A stretch of DNA of 44,895 nucleotides, taken from sequence record NC_047899.1; one strand, written 5' to 3'. Numbering within the stretch: the stretch's first letter is position 1; each line of letters begins with the position of its first letter. Under the pieces are notes generated by a model, which did not search any database, had not been told where the DNA came from, and saw nothing but the letters and a program-made list of their open reading frames with translations. Positions 6,396 to 36,365 of this stretch are shown here, piece after piece. The translations under genes and the position numbers were made by a program. Source of the stretch: Escherichia phage VEc3.

Positions 6396-6812
6396 ATGCG
6401 TAAATCATTAGCTCAAAGAGTAGAGCAAGCAGGTTATACTATACAAGACGACGGTACTATCAAAGGTAAGCGAGGTAACATCTTGAAACCTTGGCTTCAA
6501 TCTTCAGGTTATCCAGTTGTAAATATAGTATTCAAGAAAGGTACAAAGACAACTACCCTTGTGCATCGCATAATTGCTAGTAAGTATTGTCCTTGCTCTG
6601 ACCCGTTGGCTAATGATGTAAACCACAAAGACGGAATCAAGACTAATAATGCAGCTTCTAATCTTGAATGGATTACACGTAGGCAGAACCGTAATCACTA
6701 TTTAGGTTTTGAGGACTATATGACACTTACGGCAGAGGATGCCCGTAAGAAGAATAATGAGCGCACTATTGCTCGACGTAAATTACTTAAACAGTTGAAT
6801 AATAAGGACTAA
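6396..6812 (+). CDS. HNH homing endonuclease
   Basis: 138 aa; VNHKDGIKTNNAASNLEWITRRQNRNH motif; AT-rich relative to neighbours. Confidence 0.85.
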   Translation: MRKSLAQRVEQAGYTIQDDGTIKGKRGNILKPWLQSSGYPVVNIVFKKGTKTTTLVHRIIASKYCPCSDPLANDVNHKDGIKTNNAASNLEWITRRQNRNHYLGFEDYMTLTAEDARKKNNERTIARRKLLKQLNNKD

Positions 6813-6949: not shown

Positions 6950-8938
6950 ATGGCTATTATTCAGAATGTACCGTGTCCTGCCTGTCAAAAGAATGGACAT
7001 GATATTACTGGCAACCATCTTATGATATTTGAGGATGGCGCTGGTTACTGTAACCGTGGTCACTTCCATGATAACGGTAAACCTTATTACCACAAGCCGG
7101 AAGGTGGCATCGAGATAACCGAGTTACCTATTACTGGCAATATCAAATATACACCTTCTCAATTCAAAGAAATGGAGAAGGAAGGGAAGATAAGCGACCC
7201 TAAGCTACGCGCCATCGCACTTGGTGGTATGCGTATGAAAGACCGTTGGGAGGTTATGAATGAGCAAGAAAGGGCAGACCAAGAAGCAGAGTGGAAACTT
7301 GATGTTGAATGGTTCCTCACGCTTAAGCGTAAGAACCTTGTATCCCGTCACATTCGAGGTGACATCGCAGCAATGTACGATGTGCGCGTTGGACACGATG
7401 AAGAGGGAAGAGTCAACCGTCACTATTATCCACGATATGAAAAGGGTGTGCTTGTTGGAGCAAAATGCCGGACGTTGCCGAAGGATTTTAAGTTCGGACA
7501 CCTAGGTAAACTCTTTGGTATGCAAGATCTTTTCGGTATGAACACTTTGTCTCACGTGTTAGACAAGGGGAGACGAAAGGATTGCTTGCTTATTGTAGGC
7601 GGTGAACTTGATGCACTAGCAGCGCAGCAGATGCTCCTTGATTCTGCCAAGGGTACTAAGTGGGAAGGCCAGCCATACCATGTATGGTCTGTCAACAAAG
7701 GTGAGTCTTGCCTTGAAGAGATAGTGCAGAACCGTGAGCATATCGCCCAATTCAAGAAGATTATTTGGGGCTTTGATGGGGATGGGGTTGGGCAGAAGCA
7801 GAACCAGCAAGCGGCTCGCCTGTTTCCCGGCAAATCCTATATCCTTGAATATCCTTCTGGTTGCAAAGATGCCAACAAGGCATTGATGGCTGGCAAGGCT
7901 AAAGAATTTGTGGATGCTTGGTTTAATGCAAAGTCATCTGATGAAGTCTTTGGTAGCCAGATTAAATCTATCGCATCTCAAAGAGATAAGCTCAAGGCTG
8001 CACGTCCAGAACAAGGGCTGTCATGGCCTTGGCCTAAGCTAAACAAGGTAACACTGGGTATCCGTAAGAACCAGCTTATCATTATAGGTGCAGGCTCTGG
8101 TGTAGGTAAGACTGAGTTCCTCCGTGAAGTAGTTAAGCATCTCATTGAAGAACACGGTGAATCTGTAGGCATCATTTCTACAGAAGACCCGATGGTCAAG
8201 GTGTCCCGTGCTTTTATCGGTAAGTGGATTGATAAGCGTATTGAGTTACCTCCAACCAATGACCCGAAAGAAGACGGATACCGTGAGGTGTTCGACTACA
8301 CCGAGGAAGAAGCTAACGCCGCCATTGATTATGTAGCTGATACAGGTAAGCTGTTTGTAGCTGACCTAGAAGGTGACTATTCGATGGAGAAGGTAGAGCA
8401 AACTTGCCTAGAGTTTGAGGCCATGGGTATTTCTAATATCATCATTGATAACTTAACGGGGATTAAATTAGATGAGCGTGCTTTTGGTGGGAAGGTTGGT
8501 GCACTTGATGAATGCGTCAAGCGGATTGGTACTATCAAAGACAGACACCCAGTTACTATATTCCTTGTATCACACCTTACACGTCCTCCGGCAAACCGTA
8601 CCCAACACGAAGAAGGTGGCGAGGTTATCCTTTCTGACTTCCGAGGCTCAGGAGCTATCGGATTCTGGGCATCTTACGCCTTGGGGATTGAGCGTAATAC
8701 AAGAGCTGAAACGCTTGACGAAAGGACTACCACGTATATCTCATGTGTCAAAGATCGCGACCAAGGTATCTTCACCGGAACCAAGATTATGCTTAAGGGT
8801 GATATTCAAACCGGACGTTTGAGAGAACCACAGGCTAGAACAAGGTCATTTGATACAGGTGAAGCAAGGCAACAAGAAGTGCCGGATTTACCGGACACTA
8901 TAGAAGAGACAACTTTTGACGATGAACAGGAGTTTTAA
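6950..8938 (+). CDS. DNA primase/helicase (gp4-like)
   Basis: 662 aa; N-terminal Cys4 zinc ribbon (CPACQ...CNRGHFH); Walker A GAGSGVGKT; acidic C-terminus ending ...DDEQEF. Confidence 0.9.
   Translation: MAIIQNVPCPACQKNGHDITGNHLMIFEDGAGYCNRGHFHDNGKPYYHKPEGGIEITELPITGNIKYTPSQFKEMEKEGKISDPKLRAIALGGMRMKDRWEVMNEQERADQEAEWKLDVEWFLTLKRKNLVSRHIRGDIAAMYDVRVGHDEEGRVNRHYYPRYEKGVLVGAKCRTLPKDFKFGHLGKLFGMQDLFGMNTLSHVLDKGRRKDCLLIVGGELDALAAQQMLLDSAKGTKWEGQPYHVWSVNKGESCLEEIVQNREHIAQFKKIIWGFDGDGVGQKQNQQAARLFPGKSYILEYPSGCKDANKALMAGKAKEFVDAWFNAKSSDEVFGSQIKSIASQRDKLKAARPEQGLSWPWPKLNKVTLGIRKNQLIIIGAGSGVGKTEFLREVVKHLIEEHGESVGIISTEDPMVKVSRAFIGKWIDKRIELPPTNDPKEDGYREVFDYTEEEANAAIDYVADTGKLFVADLEGDYSMEKVEQTCLEFEAMGISNIIIDNLTGIKLDERAFGGKVGALDECVKRIGTIKDRHPVTIFLVSHLTRPPANRTQHEEGGEVILSDFRGSGAIGFWASYALGIERNTRAETLDERTTTYISCVKDRDQGIFTGTKIMLKGDIQTGRLREPQARTRSFDTGEARQQEVPDLPDTIEETTFDDEQEF
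8886..8908 (+). promoter_or_regulatory. Phage RNAP promoter embedded in the primase/helicase 3' coding sequence
   Basis: ATTTACCGGACACTATAGAAGAG, full consensus; +1 G at 8903; encodes ...DLPDTIEE... Confidence 0.65.
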
Positions 8939-9099
8939 TGGAAATTATTAAACCAGTATTGAATATCGGTATTGAGATCCTATTCATGCTTGTGATCGCA
9001 GATTATGCTGCACGATATGGCTTCAAGAAAGCAGTGAAACTTATCGTTGCATCTGGTTTTATGATGTCAATGTTCTTTATTGTAACACGCCTTATCTAG
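8938..9099 (+). CDS. Small membrane protein (53 aa)
   Basis: ATG overlaps the primase stop (TAATG); two hydrophobic segments. Confidence 0.4.
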   Translation: MEIIKPVLNIGIEILFMLVIADYAARYGFKKAVKLIVASGFMMSMFFIVTRLI

Positions 9100-9116
9100 T
9101 GTATTTATCAGGGCTT

Positions 9117-9132
9117 GTCTCACATGTGAGAC
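9117..9132. repeat. 16-bp perfect palindrome GTCTCACATGTGAGAC (copy 3)
   Basis: Extended stem GCTTGTCTCACA/TGTGAGACAGGC, followed by TCTTATT. Confidence 0.8.
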
Positions 9133-9171
9133 AGGCTCTTATTAAGTACATTAAATAACTGGAGATTGATT

Positions 9172-9855
9172 ATGTATAAATTAGTATTGAATGTAGGTGA
9201 TTATGTTCGTAACATCAATGAAGCCTCACGTCGTTATCGTTGCCGTGGTGTAGTGGCTCGTGTAAGTGAGAACATGTATCATGTAGAATATGATGAGGGT
9301 ATTAAGGCTTCTTATCACAAGAAAACCGCACATAAATATCTTGAAAAGGTTGTAGAGGTAAGCAATCAATGTAAGTGCATACATGATGAGGTTTGCGATA
9401 AATGTGCTCGCCAGATGCTTAAGAATTTCCTAGCCCCTCTTTATTATGGTGCTGGTCCTCAAACACTAGCAGAGTACATGGCAGAAAAGAAAACCACACT
9501 CAAGAAAGAGCGTCGCAATGTAATCACTGGTAAGACTCAGAGTGAGATGATTAAGCAATGTGGCACTGCATTAGGTGTTACACAGTTCAATACTCGTGCA
9601 TTGGGTAAATCCACAGGACAAGCTATGGTGAAAATTGGTGAAGCTATGATGCACCCAAATGTGCCTGTGCGAATCTTGGATGTTGACCATGCAATCACAG
9701 AGCATGGCACACCACGGCGTGTAGCTAATGATCATTTCGCCGACACTATAGAAGGTATTATTCGTAAGCAAGGGTTGAAAGGTCTTCACATCTTGAATGA
9801 TGAAGAGTTACTGTACCTCCCTATTGTTACTGAAGAAACATACGTGAATATCTAA
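9172..9855 (+). CDS. Hypothetical protein (227 aa), Cys-containing
   Basis: Track ORF 9166-9855 (TTG); ATG 9172 preferred (GGAG 7 nt upstream); no family recognised. Confidence 0.6.
   Translation: MYKLVLNVGDYVRNINEASRRYRCRGVVARVSENMYHVEYDEGIKASYHKKTAHKYLEKVVEVSNQCKCIHDEVCDKCARQMLKNFLAPLYYGAGPQTLAEYMAEKKTTLKKERRNVITGKTQSEMIKQCGTALGVTQFNTRALGKSTGQAMVKIGEAMMHPNVPVRILDVDHAITEHGTPRRVANDHFADTIEGIIRKQGLKGLHILNDEELLYLPIVTEETYVNI
9734..9756 (+). promoter_or_regulatory. Candidate phage promoter inside CDS (ATTTCGCCGACACTATAGAAGGT)
   Basis: Conserved -12 to +5 core GACACTATAGAAG, upstream half diverged. Confidence 0.35.
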
Positions 9856-9865
9856 GGAGTTAATC

Positions 9866-10084
9866 ATGACTAAGGTATTAATTTATATGCGTGGACCTCA
9901 TAAATGCTATGCAGTTGTAGCACCAAATGGTGTTAAGCCTTATAGTACTTCAAAAGGATTGGCATTAATAGGTGCTAGTAGTAGTGCAAGTTTCCAAATG
10001 GAACTTTTTGGTCATTGGACTGAAAGGCAATTCCGTGAGGATTTTAAAGTCATTGGCAGCTTCATGGTGAAATATGCAGAATAA
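9866..10084 (+). CDS. Hypothetical protein (72 aa)
   Basis: Track ORF; AAGGAG RBS. Confidence 0.5.
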   Translation: MTKVLIYMRGPHKCYAVVAPNGVKPYSTSKGLALIGASSSASFQMELFGHWTERQFREDFKVIGSFMVKYAE

Positions 10085-10250
10085 ACATAGTCTTAGAATG
10101 TTCGATGGTCATGAAGACCTGCAAGCCAAGATTACTAACCAAGCCTTCCTGTTCGCACAGTTAACTATGGCTGAGGCCAAGAAGAATAGTCTCACTCGTG
10201 AACAGGTTATCAAGGAAAGTGAAGTGAAACGTAAGATTCGCAGTCGATAA
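10074..10250 (+). CDS. Small ORF (58 aa), hypothetical
   Basis: ATG 10074 overlapping upstream gene end; no clear RBS. Confidence 0.3.
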   Translation: MQNKHSLRMFDGHEDLQAKITNQAFLFAQLTMAEAKKNSLTREQVIKESEVKRKIRSR

Positions 10251-10260
10251 GTCAAGGGTT

Positions 10261-10276
10261 GTCTCACGTGTGAGAC
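10261..10276. repeat. Palindrome variant GTCTCACGTGTGAGAC (copy 4)
   Basis: One central change; extended stem GGTTGTCTCAC/GTGAGACAGCC then TTTTAT. Confidence 0.7.
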
Positions 10277-10307
10277 AGCCTTTTATCATGTTGATTGGAG
10301 GTGCATT

Positions 10308-10415
10308 ATGCCACGTGATTATGATTCTGATTGGGACTATTATGACTCAATGAATCCAAAACCCGAACGTTCAGATGATTACTACGAAACAGAGGTAATG
10401 TATGAAGACTATTGA
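10308..10415 (+). CDS. Small acidic ORF (35 aa), hypothetical
   Basis: GGAGG RBS 6 nt upstream; overlaps DNAP start by 14 nt. Confidence 0.35.
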   Translation: MPRDYDSDWDYYDSMNPKPERSDDYYETEVMYEDY

Positions 10416-12948
10416 TTGGAAGAAGGAGGCAGAAGGTCGTATCCTCGTGATGGATGCGGAAGCTAAAGGACTCCTTGACGCTATCCGATATGGACACCGT
10501 GAAGATGTGCATATCATTTGCTGCATGGACTTGCTTACTACCGAGGAGTTTCTCTTCTTCGACCCGTATGAGATGCGTGACCCTGAAGCAAGAGAACGCC
10601 TGAAGGAATGGGAAGGTCATCAAGACGGAACCTTGGTTGATGGTGTTAACTTCCTGAAGCATTGTGAAGCTATTGTGTCACAGAACTTCCTAGGGTATGA
10701 CGGACTTCTCTTTGAGAAAGCATTCCCTGATATTTGGAAAGGCTTTAACTATACCGAGAAGCGCGGTAAGGGCAGACTCCGTGCTGACCTGTGCCCGGTG
10801 CGAGTCATGGATACGCTGGTGATGAGTCGCCTGTTAAACCCCGATAGACGCCTTCCTCCGCAAGCATATGCCAAAGGTATGGGTAACGTCGCCCCTCACT
10901 CAATTGAGGCGCACGGCATCCGTATAGGTCGCTATAAACCGGAGAACGAGGACTGGTCTAAACTAACTGACCACATGGTTCACCGTGTACGTGAGGACGT
11001 GGCGATTGGTCGTGACCTATTCCTCTGGCTATTTAACGGAGAATGGACGGAGCACAAACGCCGTGGCGTGAATAAACGCACTGGCCTAGGTATTGAGACA
11101 GCCTTCCACATGGAGTCCATTGTGGCGCTGGAGATGAGCCGTCAGGCCGAGCGCGGGTTCCGTCTGGACATCGACAAGGCTTTGGCCCGATGCGAAGAAT
11201 TGGACGCTAAGATTGATGAGACAGTCGCAGCGTTCCGCCCTCACATGCCTATGCGTATCAAGTCTAAACCTTTTAAACCGGAAGAAAAGAATGAAGTATG
11301 CCAACGCGCAAATGAGTATGGAGCTAGCAACAATATACCTACTGTCCTTGACCCCTCACACTTTCTTCATGCCGAGAGACGAGGAGATCGCAAGACAGTA
11401 TGGAGTGTCACTACTAAGTCTGGTGATTGGTCGGCTAGTGTCAAGAAAGACTTTCCTCACCTTAGAGGAAACCGTAATGACACGCCAAGCATCAAGTGGA
11501 TTGGCGCTTACTCGCCTGTTACTTTCGAAGAGATCCCCTTGGGTAACAGGGGTACAGTTAAGCAAGTGCTCTATGAGTATGGATGGAAAGGTGTTGAATT
11601 TAACGATACCGAGCAAGCTCATCTCGATGAGCACGGAGTGTTACCAAAACCTTGGAGTGGTAAGATAAATGAAAAGTCCCTCACTTTATGGCAAGAAAGA
11701 GCCGCACGTGAAGGTAAAACAGTCCCTGATTGGTGCTTGGGTATCGCTGCATGGTACATATTCGTATCCCGTCGTGGTCAGATACTCAACCGTGGTGACG
11801 TTGAAGCCTTCAACGAGAAGGGAACGTGGCCCTCGCAGGCTGGTGTACGAAAGTGTCGCGGCCTTGTACCTGTAGCATTCAACAAGGAGCTAGGAATCAA
11901 TGCGCAGCAATACTACGAGAGGTACGGATGTTGGCCTACGTCTGACAAAGATGACGGAGAGTGGCGTGTTCCAGCTGTTGCTATTAGTATTGGCACTTCT
12001 ACGTTCCGTATGCGTCATCGTAACGTGGTTAATATTCCTGCCCGTGGCTTGTATCCTTTACGTGATTTATTCATAGCAGGGAAAGGCAAGCTAATCCTTG
12101 GTTGTGACGGTGCAGGTCTTGAACTGCGTGTCCTGTCTCACTTCATGAATGACCCTGAGTACCAAGAGATTGTACTGCACGGTGATATTCATACGCATAA
12201 CCAGATGAAGGCTGGTCTTCCTAAGCGTGATATGGCGAAGACGTTTATATACGCCTTCCTCTATGGTTCTGGTATAGCCAACCTTGCAGCAGTCTGCGGT
12301 GTTACTGAGGAAGAAATGAAGGAAGTTGTGGCAAGATTCGAGATTGAACTACCGTCTCTTGCACGTCTTCGTGAGAATGTTATCGCACAAGGTAACAAGT
12401 TTGGCTACCTGCAAGCACCTGATGGGCATTGGGGTCGCATCCGCATGTCTGGTGGTGAACTTAAAGAGCACACGATGCTTAACGTATTACTCCAGATGAC
12501 TGGCTCTTTGTGTATGAAATATGCATTAGTCAAGGCATTTGCAGTAATGCGCAAGGAAGGTGTAGCTTTGGATGCTATGGGAAATCCTTGTGGTGTGGCT
12601 AACGTGCATGATGAAATCCAGATGGAAGTTCCTGAAGAGGAGGTCTTGTATCTTAACTACGACCTACCTTTCACCTTAGATGGGTTCGAAACAGAGAAGG
12701 CTGCTGTGAAAGCAGTTTTCGATGCAGAGGAGAAACGTGTTCATGTGGATTCTGAAGGACGTATGTGGTCTGCTGCAAACCTCGTTAGCGTTGATGCTGA
12801 TGCTGGTGTATTGCATTGCCAGCGCCGTTATCACCGTGCAGGTCATATCATTGCCGAAGCCATGACTTGGGCAGGGCAGTATCTGAAGATGCGTTGCCCG
12901 ATGGCAGGAGAATATAAGATTGGCGCAAGCTGGAAGGAAACACACTGA
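10402..12948 (+). CDS. DNA polymerase (family A, T7 gp5-like)
   Basis: 848 aa; exonuclease and polymerase blocks (GxDGAGLELRVLSHF, HGDIHTHNQ, KTFIYAFLYGSG, VHDEIQ). Confidence 0.93.
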   Translation: MKTIDWKKEAEGRILVMDAEAKGLLDAIRYGHREDVHIICCMDLLTTEEFLFFDPYEMRDPEARERLKEWEGHQDGTLVDGVNFLKHCEAIVSQNFLGYDGLLFEKAFPDIWKGFNYTEKRGKGRLRADLCPVRVMDTLVMSRLLNPDRRLPPQAYAKGMGNVAPHSIEAHGIRIGRYKPENEDWSKLTDHMVHRVREDVAIGRDLFLWLFNGEWTEHKRRGVNKRTGLGIETAFHMESIVALEMSRQAERGFRLDIDKALARCEELDAKIDETVAAFRPHMPMRIKSKPFKPEEKNEVCQRANEYGASNNIPTVLDPSHFLHAERRGDRKTVWSVTTKSGDWSASVKKDFPHLRGNRNDTPSIKWIGAYSPVTFEEIPLGNRGTVKQVLYEYGWKGVEFNDTEQAHLDEHGVLPKPWSGKINEKSLTLWQERAAREGKTVPDWCLGIAAWYIFVSRRGQILNRGDVEAFNEKGTWPSQAGVRKCRGLVPVAFNKELGINAQQYYERYGCWPTSDKDDGEWRVPAVAISIGTSTFRMRHRNVVNIPARGLYPLRDLFIAGKGKLILGCDGAGLELRVLSHFMNDPEYQEIVLHGDIHTHNQMKAGLPKRDMAKTFIYAFLYGSGIANLAAVCGVTEEEMKEVVARFEIELPSLARLRENVIAQGNKFGYLQAPDGHWGRIRMSGGELKEHTMLNVLLQMTGSLCMKYALVKAFAVMRKEGVALDAMGNPCGVANVHDEIQMEVPEEEVLYLNYDLPFTLDGFETEKAAVKAVFDAEEKRVHVDSEGRMWSAANLVSVDADAGVLHCQRRYHRAGHIIAEAMTWAGQYLKMRCPMAGEYKIGASWKETH

Positions 12949-13064
12949 TGGATAGGCTTGACATTATTTGCCTATTCTTCACTCTCTTTCTTACACTCCT
13001 TATGCTTGCTTGTTATGGGAGTATGAGACTAGATATACCTGATGAAGAAGAGGGTTACGACTAA
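12948..13064 (+). CDS. Small membrane protein (38 aa)
   Basis: ATG overlaps DNAP stop (TGATG); hydrophobic core LFFTLFLTLLMLACY. Confidence 0.35.
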   Translation: MDRLDIICLFFTLFLTLLMLACYGSMRLDIPDEEEGYD

Positions 13065-13162
13065 TGCAAACTGCTTTTATTATTCTTGGTATCATATTAT
13101 TTATGGTAGTACTCTGGGCCTTCTCTGGCATTGACCCGGATTGTGATGGTAACTACGACTGA
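13064..13162 (+). CDS. Small membrane protein (32 aa)
   Basis: TAATG overlap with upstream ORF; hydrophobic ILGIILFMVVLWAF. Confidence 0.35.
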   Translation: MQTAFIILGIILFMVVLWAFSGIDPDCDGNYD

Positions 13163-13230
13163 GTTATACTCAAGGTCACTTACGAGTGGCCTTTATGGAT
13201 AACTTATCCCTACTTATTTTGTCTAACATG

Positions 13231-13253
13231 ATTTACTGGACACTATAGAAGGA
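13231..13253 (+). promoter_or_regulatory. Phage RNAP promoter (ATTTACTGGACACTATAGAAGGA)
   Basis: Full consensus; +1 G at 13248. Confidence 0.7.
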
Positions 13254-13317
13254 AAGCCTAGACAATCTAGGTTTATAAGGTAGTATAGGTAATTAAGTAA
13301 ATATAGGAGATATAAAC

Positions 13318-13695
13318 ATGTCTATGGTAACTACTCTGGTATTTGTAGCTCAATACTTTCGTGGTCTGGCTAATAAGTTCAAGTCCAAGGCTATCAAAGC
13401 TATTGAGTCTCGCATCGAGGCAGTACAGGCAGAGCAAGTTAAAGTTGAAGAACATCGTAGTTCTAAAATGATTGACTGCCATAACCGCTACTATGCATCT
13501 CGTGATAACCTTAATGCACGCCAAGTCAAAGAGGTTGAAGAGATGCTGGCACGTCACCAGCAAGAGCGCGACAGTCTGAAAGCTGAATTTGAAGAGAACA
13601 AGGCATCCATCGCCCTTGTACATCAAGCCGCATCTGACAGCCTGAAGAAAGAGATTGTTATGCTGGAAATTGAGTTAGACAACCTGACCAAATAA
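13318..13695 (+). CDS. Hypothetical coiled-coil protein (125 aa), N-terminal hydrophobic segment
   Basis: Track ORF; AGGAG RBS. Confidence 0.55.
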   Translation: MSMVTTLVFVAQYFRGLANKFKSKAIKAIESRIEAVQAEQVKVEEHRSSKMIDCHNRYYASRDNLNARQVKEVEEMLARHQQERDSLKAEFEENKASIALVHQAASDSLKKEIVMLEIELDNLTK

Positions 13696-13716
13696 TTACT
13701 GGACACTATAGAACAA
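13694..13716 (+). promoter_or_regulatory. Phage RNAP promoter (AATTACTGGACACTATAGAACAA)
   Basis: Consensus core; +1 G at 13711. Confidence 0.65.
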
Positions 13717-13857
13717 TAGGTCGGCTTAGTTCGGCCTATGATTGTAAAGTGTTGAACCTTATTGTGCATCTTGCACAACCCGATGCTATATCGGGCTTTC
13801 TAGTGAGTACATGCTTGTGCTCAGTACAAAACTAACTGACAATAGGAGACTAAATAA

Positions 13858-14664
13858 ATGGCACGTGGTGATTTTGATTTTGGTGCTCAGGTTACTAAGG
13901 CTGAAGGTAAAGTATTTAAGAACCCTGAAGTTGGTGATCATGAAGCAGTAATCTCTGGCATCATTCATGTTGGTTCCTTCCAAGATATTTTTAAGAAAGG
14001 TAATACCACTGAGGTTAAGAAGCCAGCAAACTTTGTTCTTGTTAAGATTATCCTGATGGGTGACGACGACAAGAATGAAGATGATTCTCGCATGGAACAG
14101 TGGATGGCTGTGTCTCTGAAGTCTGGTGACAAGGCAACCTTGACTAAGTTCCTGAATGCAGTTGACCCGAAAGAATTACTTGGTGGGTTCGATGATTTTA
14201 TCGGGGAATGCCTGACTGCAACTATGGTTGGCTCTGGTGACAAGAACGATGATGGGTCATTCAAGTATGTTAACTGGAAGGGCTTTGGTGGTATGCCGGA
14301 CAAGCTGAAGAAACTTGTCATTGCTCAGGTTGAAGAGGAAGGTCTGTCTATGACAGGTCATATCACCTTCGACAAGCTGACCAAAGAAATCCTTGATGAC
14401 ATCCCAGCTAACTTGGTGCGTCAATACTTCCTTAATGAAACACCTCGTGGTAAGAACCTGTCTGTTGCTGGTTCTCACGTAGAAGCAATCATTAAAGCTG
14501 CTCGTGAAGAAGACCCAGAGTGGAAGAAAGCCAAGAAGAAAGATGACGAGGATGCTACTCCAGCTAATCGTAAATCTCTGGATACTGGTGAGTCTGTTCC
14601 ACAGGAAGTACCTGAAGCAGAAGATACTCCTGCACCGGAGATGGATGAGGACGCGGAATATTAA
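13858..14664 (+). CDS. Candidate ssDNA-binding protein (gp2.5-like)
   Basis: 268 aa; long acidic C-terminal tail ending ...MDEDAEY with a terminal aromatic, as in T7 gp2.5; strong RBS; assignment by architecture only. Confidence 0.45.
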   Translation: MARGDFDFGAQVTKAEGKVFKNPEVGDHEAVISGIIHVGSFQDIFKKGNTTEVKKPANFVLVKIILMGDDDKNEDDSRMEQWMAVSLKSGDKATLTKFLNAVDPKELLGGFDDFIGECLTATMVGSGDKNDDGSFKYVNWKGFGGMPDKLKKLVIAQVEEEGLSMTGHITFDKLTKEILDDIPANLVRQYFLNETPRGKNLSVAGSHVEAIIKAAREEDPEWKKAKKKDDEDATPANRKSLDTGESVPQEVPEAEDTPAPEMDEDAEY

Positions 14665-14673
14665 GGAGAAAGG

Positions 14674-14892
14674 ATGAAAGTACAAATCGTAACCCTGCAC
14701 TGCAAGAAAGGTATCACAACGCTCGGAGGTAGCACTTTCCACTCTTTCTCCGAAGGGGAGATTTATGCTGACCTGCACTACATCTGGCGCGACGGACAGC
14801 ACGTGGTGAACTACAGCGACCCAGCTACGGGGAAACGCCACGGCGTATCGCTTCCTGCGCATGACATTGCTCAGGTGAACACAGTTTTATAA
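14674..14892 (+). CDS. Hypothetical protein (72 aa)
   Basis: Track ORF; AAGGAG RBS. Confidence 0.5.
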   Translation: MKVQIVTLHCKKGITTLGGSTFHSFSEGEIYADLHYIWRDGQHVVNYSDPATGKRHGVSLPAHDIAQVNTVL

Positions 14893-14924: not shown

Positions 14925-14947
14925 ATTTACTGGACACTATAGAAGAG
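14925..14947 (+). promoter_or_regulatory. Phage RNAP promoter (ATTTACTGGACACTATAGAAGAG)
   Basis: Full consensus; +1 G at 14942. Confidence 0.7.
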
Positions 14948-14996: not shown

Positions 14997-15371
14997 ATGT
15001 TCAAGATTGAAACTATCGTAAACCGTGTTGTTAAAGGTGCTGCTCTGGTATCCGTTGAGTCTTTCATTATCGTCGATGAAGCTGATCAACTGGTAGCTGG
15101 TACTAAGGCTTACGATACCCGTGAAGAAGCTCAGGCTAAGATTGACAGCATGGGTAACTTCGCTGCTGGTCTGGAGTTCGCTCGCGCTTGCTTCCCTGAG
15201 CAGGCTGACAAAGCTCAGATTGGTAAGGCTAATATCGTAGCTGAATATCTGGATTGGATTGCTGCTGGTAAGCCGGTGAAAGAAGTTAAGTCTGCTGAAG
15301 AAGCTGAAGCTCCAGTAGAAGAAGTAGCTGCACCGGTAGATGCTCCGGTAAGCGAAGAAGAAGAGTTTTAA
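14997..15371 (+). CDS. Small acidic-tailed protein (124 aa), own promoter and terminator
   Basis: Track ORF; Ala/Glu-rich; C-terminus ...VSEEEEF; flanked by promoter 14925 and terminator 15378. Confidence 0.6.
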   Translation: MFKIETIVNRVVKGAALVSVESFIIVDEADQLVAGTKAYDTREEAQAKIDSMGNFAAGLEFARACFPEQADKAQIGKANIVAEYLDWIAAGKPVKEVKSAEEAEAPVEEVAAPVDAPVSEEEEF

Positions 15372-19800: not shown

Positions 19801-19915
19801 TTTGAACGAAAAACAGCTTGAATTGTTAATAGAAGCCATTGAGCAATACTATTATATGTGGGGCTATCAGTCAGAAGAATTAGACTCCTTATATTCACAA
19901 CTAAAAGGAGGTTAA
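19790..19915 (+). CDS. Small ORF (41 aa), hypothetical
   Basis: AAGGAGG RBS 6 nt upstream of ATG 19790. Confidence 0.4.
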   Translation: MFIDLNEKQLELLIEAIEQYYYMWGYQSEELDSLYSQLKGG

Positions 19916-19917
19916 TT

Positions 19918-20115
19918 ATGTCTTTTGATTCTATGAAGGCAACTCGTGCTGTTGAGGTAGCAGAGGCCATCTTCGAAACTCTATCCTGTGGCATGGAAGT
20001 GCCATATACTTTACTGGCTGATGCAGAAGAACTTGGTCTTTCTGTAGAAGCTATCCAAGAGAAGGTTGACGAATTATATGGTACAGACGAAGAAGAAACC
20101 GACGATTTCATTTGA
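19918..20115 (+). CDS. Small acidic protein (65 aa)
   Basis: ATG 19918 with AAGGAGG RBS; acidic C-terminus EEETDDFI; track ORF 19858 is over-extended. Confidence 0.5.
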   Translation: MSFDSMKATRAVEVAEAIFETLSCGMEVPYTLLADAEELGLSVEAIQEKVDELYGTDEEETDDFI

Positions 20116-36082: not shown

Positions 36083-36365
36083 ACATGCAGCTACAGAGGA
36101 CGAGGTTGGCATTCTGCATGGTGCTATTACCAAAATCTTCAATAAGAAAGCACAGGCAATACTGGACACTATAGAAGAAGACCCTGATGCAGCATTACAT
36201 TTAGTGTCTGGTAAGGATATTGGTGCGATGTGTAAGTGGGTTCTTGATAACGGCATTACCGCCACACCTGCTGCACAGCAGGAAGAGTCCAAGTTATCTA
36301 AGCGCCTCAAGGCTATCCGAGAGGCATCCAGTGGTAAGATAATTCAGTTTACAAAAGAGGAGTGA
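36066..36365 (+). CDS. Terminase small subunit (gp18-like), start uncertain
   Basis: GTG 36066 with GGAGGG RBS preferred; track ATG 36021 is the alternative; position between holin and terminase large subunit. Confidence 0.45.
   Translation: MSVHNKHAATEDEVGILHGAITKIFNKKAQAILDTIEEDPDAALHLVSGKDIGAMCKWVLDNGITATPAAQQEESKLSKRLKAIREASSGKIIQFTKEE
36157..36179 (+). promoter_or_regulatory. Phage RNAP promoter embedded in the terminase small subunit CDS
   Basis: GGCAATACTGGACACTATAGAAGAAG; +1 G at 36174; encodes ...AILDTIEED. Confidence 0.55.

Follow-up and report, generated by a model that had tools for sequence, protein, structure and literature searches.

Which protein coats single-stranded DNA (ssDNA) at the replication fork of SP6/K1E-type phages, and through which contacts is it held in the replisome? 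The question is raised by positions 6950–14664 of Escherichia phage VEc3 (NC_047899.1), whose whole stretch of 44,895 nucleotides was analysed and is referred to as the window. On its plus strand, this locus encodes a T7-gp4-type primase-helicase of 662 amino acids (aa; 6950–8938, a homologue of K1E gp9), a family A DNA polymerase (10402–12948, a homologue of K1E gp13) and a 268-aa protein (13858–14664, a homologue of K1E gp16, phrog_862). No ssDNA-binding protein (SSB) is annotated in SP6/K1E-type phages or in many other Autographiviridae, and Pfam has no model for the 268-aa family. A sequence-only reading of the locus had called the 268-aa protein the SSB, because its acidic C-terminus with a final aromatic residue resembles that of the primase-helicase, and had proposed a T7-like docking of both tails on the polymerase. 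As a whole, we consider it rather probable that the 268-aa protein is the SSB, and that its tip, the tip of the primase-helicase and that of a third, 124-aa protein compete for one basic site in the replisome, most probably on the family A polymerase.

Predicted architecture of the 268-aa protein

The translation of the 268-aa gene ends ...APEMDEDAEY, in accordance with the C-terminus ...EMDEDAEY given in the sequence-only reading. An AlphaFold2 model built on a 27-sequence alignment had a mean predicted local distance difference test (pLDDT) score of 77.6, with about 90 in the core, and a predicted template modelling score of 0.72. The core, aa ~25–145 (13930–14292, plus strand; pLDDT 80–94), is predicted to be an oligonucleotide/oligosaccharide-binding (OB)-fold β-barrel, with OB folds among its structural matches. 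The strands were placed at 26–47, 50–53, 57–66, 80–86, 118–129 and 135–144, with helices 94–102 and 111–114 in between, so that a helix lies between the strands as in OB folds. The core is followed by a predicted helical subdomain, aa ~148–218 (14299–14511, plus strand; pLDDT ~85–94), in which T175, P183, G205 and S206 are conserved, and then by a Pro/Ala/Glu-rich linker and acidic tip, aa 222–268 (14521–14661, plus strand), ending ...QEVPEAEDTPAPEMDEDAEY. The pLDDT was below 50 over aa 229–258, and disorder was predicted from position 229 to the C-terminus. The tip is kept as [acidic]-x-E-[YF] in 27 homologues, down to 33% identity, and in 31 loci.

An OB fold, a disordered linker and an SSB-type tip, in this order, make up an SSB. 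Therefore, from the sequences and the predicted fold, the 268-aa protein is probably the SSB of this phage, and its whole family probably consists of SSBs; the protein would be expected to bind ssDNA. No other SSB-like open reading frame (ORF) was found in the window with Pfam, PHROGs, or searches with T7 gp2.5 and Escherichia coli SSB (the latter query sequence being approximate), and phmmer of gp2.5 against the six-frame translation of the window gave only E>2. The predicted barrel with its disordered tail, this lack of a rival ORF and the remote homologues described below, which end in DDDIPF, thus uphold the SSB call of the sequence-only reading.

That reading had also suggested the gp2.5 family and had named two checks, an OB-fold structure prediction and a profile search against gp2.5-family SSBs. 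The first gave the barrel core with its OB-fold matches; the second detected no similarity, and the suggestion did not hold. Pfam, searched down to E≤10, gave no match for the 268-aa protein but assigned the T7 gp2.5 control to PF21265 at 1.1e-89, and searches at the same threshold with 85 relatives gave no route to a known SSB. Comparison of the 27-sequence profile with T7 gp2.5 by hhalign gave a probability of 0.08, sequence and profile searches of PDB found no relative, and neither gp2.5 nor the Enc34 SSB was among the structural matches listed for the model. Sequence similarity and a Pfam match to PF00436-type SSBs were likewise absent, and the tip is DEDAEY, not DDDIPF.

Among the structural matches was PrgE of plasmid pCF10 (PDB 8S4S/8S4T), an atypical OB-fold SSB-like protein, at 12–15% identity. 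The solved PrgE chains comprise 128–136 residues and match the OB core alone (101 aligned residues), and the helical subdomain and the long acidic tail had no counterpart among the matches listed. PrgE differs further in that it binds double-stranded DNA as well as ssDNA and oligomerises via its N-terminal tail. A fold search of BFVD with the model returned uncharacterised phage proteins and two DUF669 proteins, and nothing else; the link to DUF669 was not confirmed by sequence search and was discarded. The PHROGs function of phrog_862 is unlisted, and all 214 homologous places in GenBank phage records (214/214) are labelled 'hypothetical protein' or have no functional annotation. Our literature search, which covered subscription papers poorly and did not include Scholl et al. 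2004, found no earlier description of an SSB in SP6/K1E-type phages.

Three proteins share a conserved and co-varying tip

The primase-helicase matches phrog_239 (DNA primase/helicase, 2e-185) and is 98% identical to K1E gp9 and 25% identical to T7 gp4. It has a DnaB_C domain (Pfam, aa 357–604, 1e-14) and a Toprim_2 region (aa 218–312) whose 19.1 bits lie just below the cut-off of 22.1, so that a Toprim primase and a DnaB-type helicase domain are joined in one chain, as in gp4. The ORF ends ...TIEETTFDDEQEF, which bears out the tip DDEQEF of the sequence-only reading, and the C-terminal tail, aa 641–662, is QQEVPDLPDTIEETTFDDEQEF (8870–8935, plus strand). In the sampled relatives, the last residue of the tail is always F or Y and the one before it is acidic or small, except in SP6 (...QEFNG, two residues past F) and in the metagenomic contig L037 (...EDFG, one residue past F). 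In the SP6 genome (L012, 3254–5242), the helicase ends ...TQEFNG, while its nearest relatives (L013, L014 and L016) stop at ...TQEF; the SP6 end may represent a true variant or else reflect a difference in sequence at the stop codon.

All ORFs were scanned with a strict pattern, in which the last residue is F, Y or W, the penultimate residue is D or E, and the last six residues contain at least three acidic and no basic residues. Three of the 50 plus-strand genes matched, namely those for the primase-helicase, the 268-aa protein and a 124-aa protein (14997–15371, plus strand; a homologue of K1E gp18, phrog_4429) that ends ...PVSEEEEF. Composition-preserving shuffles gave 0.036 expected matches; P(≥2) was 4e-4, and three matches did not occur in any of 5000 shuffles. 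The two proteins named in the sequence-only reading do carry the tail, but that set was incomplete, since the 124-aa protein had been overlooked.

In the 124-aa protein, a conserved globular part spanning ~95 residues is followed by a linker rich in Ala, Glu, Pro and Val and by the tip ...SEEEEF. Its 372 homologues are all 'hypothetical' or unnamed except for one nr record, which is named DUF1508, and the protein itself had no match in Pfam, PDB or NCBIfam. By eye, its segment FIIVDEADQLVAGTKAYDTREEAQAKIDSM looks YegP-like, a resemblance that Pfam did not detect.

An additional ORF, 19858–20115 (85 aa, ...GTDEEETDDFI), was considered as a fourth tail-bearer and rejected, because the aromatic residue is not kept in its relatives. 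In these, the acidity is kept and the final residues vary (DD, SE, YQY, DY).

The tails were followed through 30 IMG/VR loci of 49–99% identity, two metagenomic contigs and eight distant GenBank phages (Vibrio phage phi-A318, Ralstonia phage Reminis, Pseudomonas phage MR4, Aeromonas phage MJG, Vibrio phage JSF38, Escherichia phage ECBP5, Pantoea phage Nufs112 and Edwardsiella phage WAG25P1). They are kept throughout, in the two contigs on the helicase and the SSB-like protein. In the 30 IMG/VR loci, the tip is constant on all three proteins and the linkers are divergent. All three proteins are tailed in Molineuxvirinae, Colwellvirinae, Gajwadongvirus and unclassified Autographiviridae.

The form of the tip changes together in the different proteins. 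In most lineages, the helicase ends xEF, the SSB-like protein xE[FY] and the third protein xxF (EEF, ETF or EDF; GAF or KAF in Reminis and Nufs112). In a Klebsiella group (L027–L029), the corresponding ends are SEY, AEY or EEY, and EEY, and in Aeromonas phage MJG they are ASY, ATY and AAY. In contig L037, the helicase ends EDFG and the SSB-like protein EDFS, with the aromatic residue penultimate in both alike, and the third protein has no tip. When the pairing of helicase and SSB-like protein was permuted among 16 lineages, the mean score of the last 8 residues was 16.3 within versus 13.5 between genomes (P = 0.009), and that of the last 22 residues was 12.6 within versus 5.5 between genomes (P = 0.0005). 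In the window, QEVP[DE]xxDT is common to the helicase and 268-aa tails about 20 residues before the end. For the third protein, co-variation is confined to the tip. Since the tails co-vary, they argue for a shared partner.

Candidate docking sites on the DNA polymerase

The T7 polymerase gp5 has two sites to which the acidic tails of gp4 and gp2.5 bind, a front basic patch (K587, K589, R590 and R591, with K594 and R599 alongside) and a patch on the thioredoxin-binding domain, and the terminal Phe of gp2.5 is essential (PMC12339929; bioRxiv 10.64898/2026.05.20.726333). The polymerase of the window matches DNA_pol_A (Pfam, 3.5e-23) and phrog_17, and is 35% identical to T7 gp5 over the palm and fingers. 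A first pairwise alignment had suggested partial conservation of the front basic patch; this reading was dropped, because an alignment of 14 SP6/K1E-type polymerases with T7 gp5 showed that the loop is deleted.

Two other elements are candidates for the tail site. The first is a conserved hairpin, DGHWGRIRMSGGELKE, at aa 674–689 (12421–12468, plus strand), which adjoins the position where the front patch would be. It has the form DG[HR]WGRIR..., and R679 and R681, aligned with H602 and R604 of T7, are invariant in the 14 sequences. In distant relatives the hairpin is strongly basic (e.g. DGRWGRIRKKGGKL). The second is a thumb insertion, aa 278–378 (11233–11535, plus strand), at the position of the T7 thioredoxin-binding loop. 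It comprises ~100 aa with a net charge of +5, as compared with 71 aa and +7 for T7 residues 257–327, and contains the conserved basic stretch FRPHMPMRIKSKPFKP. R285 is invariant, and R326 and K349, which are also conserved, correspond to T7 R278 and K304 in a region that is aligned with low confidence. Judged from these alignments, the polymerase has plausible sites, and the site that defines docking in T7 is missing. Thus, of the T7-like docking proposed in the sequence-only reading, the shared acidic, aromatic-ended tails stand, but the T7 front basic patch does not.

We propose the following mechanism. The OB-fold core and the helical subdomain of the 268-aa protein would coat ssDNA at the fork, and the disordered linker with its acidic, Tyr-ended tip would extend from them. 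A closely similar tail is carried by each subunit of the primase-helicase ring, which is presumably hexameric like that of T7 gp4, and also by the 124-aa protein. Most likely, the three tips would compete for a single site, basic and able to accept an aromatic residue, on a protein of the phage replisome. The owner of that site would most probably be the family A DNA polymerase, because in T7 gp4 and gp2.5 bind to gp5/thioredoxin. By such contacts, the helicase may recruit and retain polymerases, the SSB may pass ssDNA to the polymerase, which would strip the SSB off, and the 124-aa protein may be brought to the same site or modulate it. We infer the docking partner, its site and any role of the 124-aa protein from the T7 analogy and the co-varying tails, and on this basis docking on the polymerase as in T7 is slightly favoured. 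The OB groove of the SSB itself, or the helicase, are alternative targets of the tails.

Several observations weigh against docking of all three tips on one polymerase site. The K587/K589/R590/R591 loop of T7 is a T7-specific insertion that is absent from all 14 SP6/K1E-type polymerases aligned (14/14). The hairpin is weaker in the window than in the distant relatives, its only basic residues being R679, R681 and K688, beside E686 and E689. The tips of the window differ among themselves, as the SSB candidate ends in Y and the other two proteins in F, and the SP6 helicase has its two residues after F. In two distant contigs, the homologue of the 124-aa protein has no tip. Finally, the permutation test ignored kinship among the 16 lineages, so that the independent events are fewer than 16.

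The strongest of the other explanations is that the tails serve mainly as acidic DNA mimics in the OB groove of the SSB. The tail of the 268-aa protein would then tune ssDNA affinity in cis, and those of the helicase and the 124-aa protein would bind the same groove to load or unload the SSB, with no docking on the polymerase. The missing front basic patch loop speaks for this, and in models of T7 gp2.5 the tail lies in the DNA-binding groove of the same protein, where it modulates the binding of ssDNA (PMC12339929). In addition, residues 259–264 of the 268-aa tail have a pLDDT of at least 50 with lower values on their flanks, which hints at a predicted contact. However, such binding is compatible with docking on the polymerase, both of which occur in T7, and conserved basic elements are kept in the polymerases. 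Because the helicase also carries the tail, conserved in the same form, a common third partner is simpler. We therefore regard binding in the OB groove instead of on the polymerase as unlikely, though worth weighing.

Since the tip is common to three proteins, the 124-aa protein is predicted to visit the same site as the other two. A more general reading, that the tip [DE]-x-E-[FY] is an address label for one site in the phage replisome, used by the helicase, the SSB family and a YegP/DUF1508-like protein, is offered tentatively and is less likely than polymerase docking itself. If it were true, the 124-aa protein would compete with the helicase and the SSB for the polymerase, as a new accessory component or regulator of the replisome.

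The wider OB-fold family and its tips

An exhaustive profile search with the 268-aa family yielded 97 clusters. Their C-termini are modular; many end in xEE[FY], and a large group ends in DDDIPF, DDEIPF, DDEVPF or DDDLPF. The tip of the bacterial SSB, as in E. coli, is ...DFDDDIPF. One DDDIPF-tipped member, P0075, is related to the window family at E 4e-19 over nearly its full length, and its gene lies between a T7-type polymerase and an exonuclease, the same position as that of the 268-aa gene in the window. Other members end in PPGFxYDPATNSF-type sequences (P0081, P0083, P0090, P0091, P0094, P0101 and P0130), in DDPLAxLGL-type sequences (P0095, P0115, P0121 and P0138), or in acidic residues followed by W. 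The different conserved motifs suggest further docking partners for this OB-fold family. If the address-label reading holds, swappable tips (xEE[FY], DDDIPF, PPGFxYDPATNSF and DDPLAxLGL) decide which replisome or repair machinery the SSB joins.

With these endings, the tails might instead mimic the host SSB tip and recruit or sequester exonuclease I, RecQ, PriA or the chi subunit, without any phage partner. The tip of the family is modular and can be host-directed, as the remote members ending DDDIPF, DDEVPF and the like match the E. coli SSB tip. The tips in the window (DAEY, EQEF and EEEF) are without the I/V-P-F element, however, and resemble DGDF and DTDF of T7 instead; moreover, a tip that is shared and co-varies with the phage primase-helicase points to a phage-internal partner. 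Host mimicry is thus improbable for the proteins of the window.

The same family bears on the name of the 268-aa protein. NCBIfam NF046043 ('phage replication initiation protein, NGO0469 family') was matched by 82 of 85 family members, and the 268-aa protein itself matched weakly (E 4e-4, 19.9 bits over aa 20–107), below the curated cut-off of 75 bits. By this profile match, it is homologous to NF046043 over the OB core yet outside the curated family. Nine of ten DD[DE][IVL]PF-tipped members lie above the cut-off, across the whole profile. These matches would allow the 268-aa protein to be a replication initiation or primase-like protein, not an SSB. The name, however, goes back to a table of Piekarowicz et al. 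2007 and to weak BLAST similarity, namely to a nanovirus Rep, with 26% identity across 109 residues, and to a phage primase, with 32% across 87; in the text NGO0469 is guessed to be a gene that 'probably encodes the primase', and no experiment stands behind the name (PMC1931599). The 268-aa protein is predicted to adopt an OB barrel and neither a Rep/HUH nor a primase fold; in bona fide members of NF046043, the domain is followed by SSB-type tips, and the phage already encodes a primase-helicase. An initiation or primase role is accordingly very improbable, and the NF046043 name is probably wrong, since its members look like SSBs. NF046043 proteins with a DD[DE][IVL]PF tip after the OB-core-homologous domain include P0075, P0110, P0122, P0123, P0128, P0140, P0141 and others.

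Chance resemblance among acidic proteins, conceivable because phage early and middle proteins are often acidic (ocr ends ...SEEEEE, and ORF 19858–20115 is also acidic-ended), is effectively refuted by conservation in the sequences, given three tails against 0.036 expected, a tip conserved where the linkers diverge, and tip changes that are coordinated across proteins.

Comparison with known systems

The closest known system is the T7 replisome, which likewise has a gp4-type primase-helicase and an OB-fold protein with acidic, aromatic-ended tails (...NDTDF and ...EDGDF) and a family A polymerase, gp5, homologous to that of the window. It differs in that the SSB candidate has no detectable sequence or profile homology to gp2.5, the tip is [DE]-x-E-[FY] here and D-x-D-F in T7, and the front basic patch loop is absent from the window-type polymerase. 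The thumb insertion is ~100 aa here and 71 in T7. In T7, suppressors of a gp2.5 that lacked the terminal Phe mapped to the polymerase. Because only gp2.5 and gp4 are tailed among T7 genes 2 to 6.7, the third tail-bearer is a real difference.

In bacterial SSBs, too, an OB fold is followed by a disordered linker and an acidic, aromatic-ended tip, and remote homologues of the 268-aa protein carry exactly the SSB tip; the window protein differs from them by its lack of similarity to the PF00436 type and of an I-P-F element in the tip. NF046043 is homologous over the OB core (window aa 20–107), but the members found are 200–220 aa long with host-type DD[DE][IVL]PF tips, and the window protein is ~50 aa longer. 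Enc34 ORF6/DUF2815 (PF10991) and gp2.5-like SSBs are phage-encoded monomer-type OB-fold SSBs with acidic C-termini (PMC5686142). The 268-aa protein differs in having no Pfam match to PF10991 or PF21265, and neither type was among the structural matches listed.

The SSB assignment is well supported, and it concerns an OB-fold family that is distinct from gp2.5 and is unannotated or misnamed. If true, it supplies a missing component of the replication module in a large group of therapeutically used phages and corrects an annotation that is spreading through prophage records. The matched, co-varying tails provide a testable prediction of binding partners in a non-T7 replisome, and the 124-aa protein is marked by its tail as a likely replisome component. 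Since acidic tails are already established as docking peptides in T7 and bacterial SSBs, the present case extends that principle and does not introduce another.

Gene order and upstream elements

Aligned over its full length, the 6950–14664 region of VEc3 shows 97.7% identity with Escherichia phage EEc4 and 93% with phage K1E. K1E belongs to the Autographiviridae, Molineuxvirinae, genus Vectrevirus, and the window is thus a Vectrevirus (K1E-like) genome. The 'SP6-like backbone' of the sequence-only reading is a fair description, because SP6 belongs to a sister genus. A small protein (14674–14892; K1E gp17) is encoded between the 268-aa and 124-aa genes, and genes for an exonuclease and an endonuclease VII lie downstream of 14997–15371. 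In all eight distant phages, the order is primase-helicase, polymerase, SSB-like protein, small protein(s), the ~120-aa homologue of the 124-aa protein, and exonuclease.

A 15-mer scan detected a site resembling a phage RNA polymerase promoter, TACTGGACACTATAG, upstream of the 268-aa gene (13697–13711, plus strand), and the same 15-mer upstream of the 124-aa gene (14928–14942, plus strand). The core of these SP6/K1E-type promoter-like sites, GACACTATAG, had 13 matches, including those with two mismatches, versus 1.3 expected; plus-strand sites are at 2190, 6169, 8889, 9737, 13234, 13697, 14928, 18075, 23406, 36160 and 38697. Exact copies of the 15-mer precede the genes at 13318, 13858, 14997 and 23474 (capsid; site 23406), with further copies at 36160 and 38697. 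The 268-aa gene thus has its own phage promoter-like site, like gene 2.5 of T7 with its own promoter, and it is preceded by an AGGAG ribosome-binding site. Between the promoter-like site and the 268-aa gene, at 13712–13800, there are two short inverted repeats (ggtcggc...ttcggcc and cccgat gctat atcggg), which, judging from their letters, may form RNA hairpins that act as processing or stability elements.

Compared with T7 gp5, all of these polymerases contain ~60 additional residues close to the C-terminus. In the window polymerase, aa ~753–788 (12658–12765), LPFTLDGFETEKAAVKAVFD..., is a segment that is found in some Molineuxvirinae and is replaced by a shorter one in others.

An HNH_3 homing-endonuclease ORF of 138 aa (6396–6812; Pfam 2.6e-8) lies between the RNA polymerase and primase-helicase genes, at a site where K1E has two small ORFs instead (gp8 and gp8.5). 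Endonuclease ORFs of the same HNH_3 type also separate the two ORFs of the primase-helicase in JSF38 (L041, 1920–4658) and the two ORFs of the DNA polymerase in WAG25P1 (L044, 5780–8964). In both phages, a replisome gene seems to have received an insertion of the homing-endonuclease or intron type.

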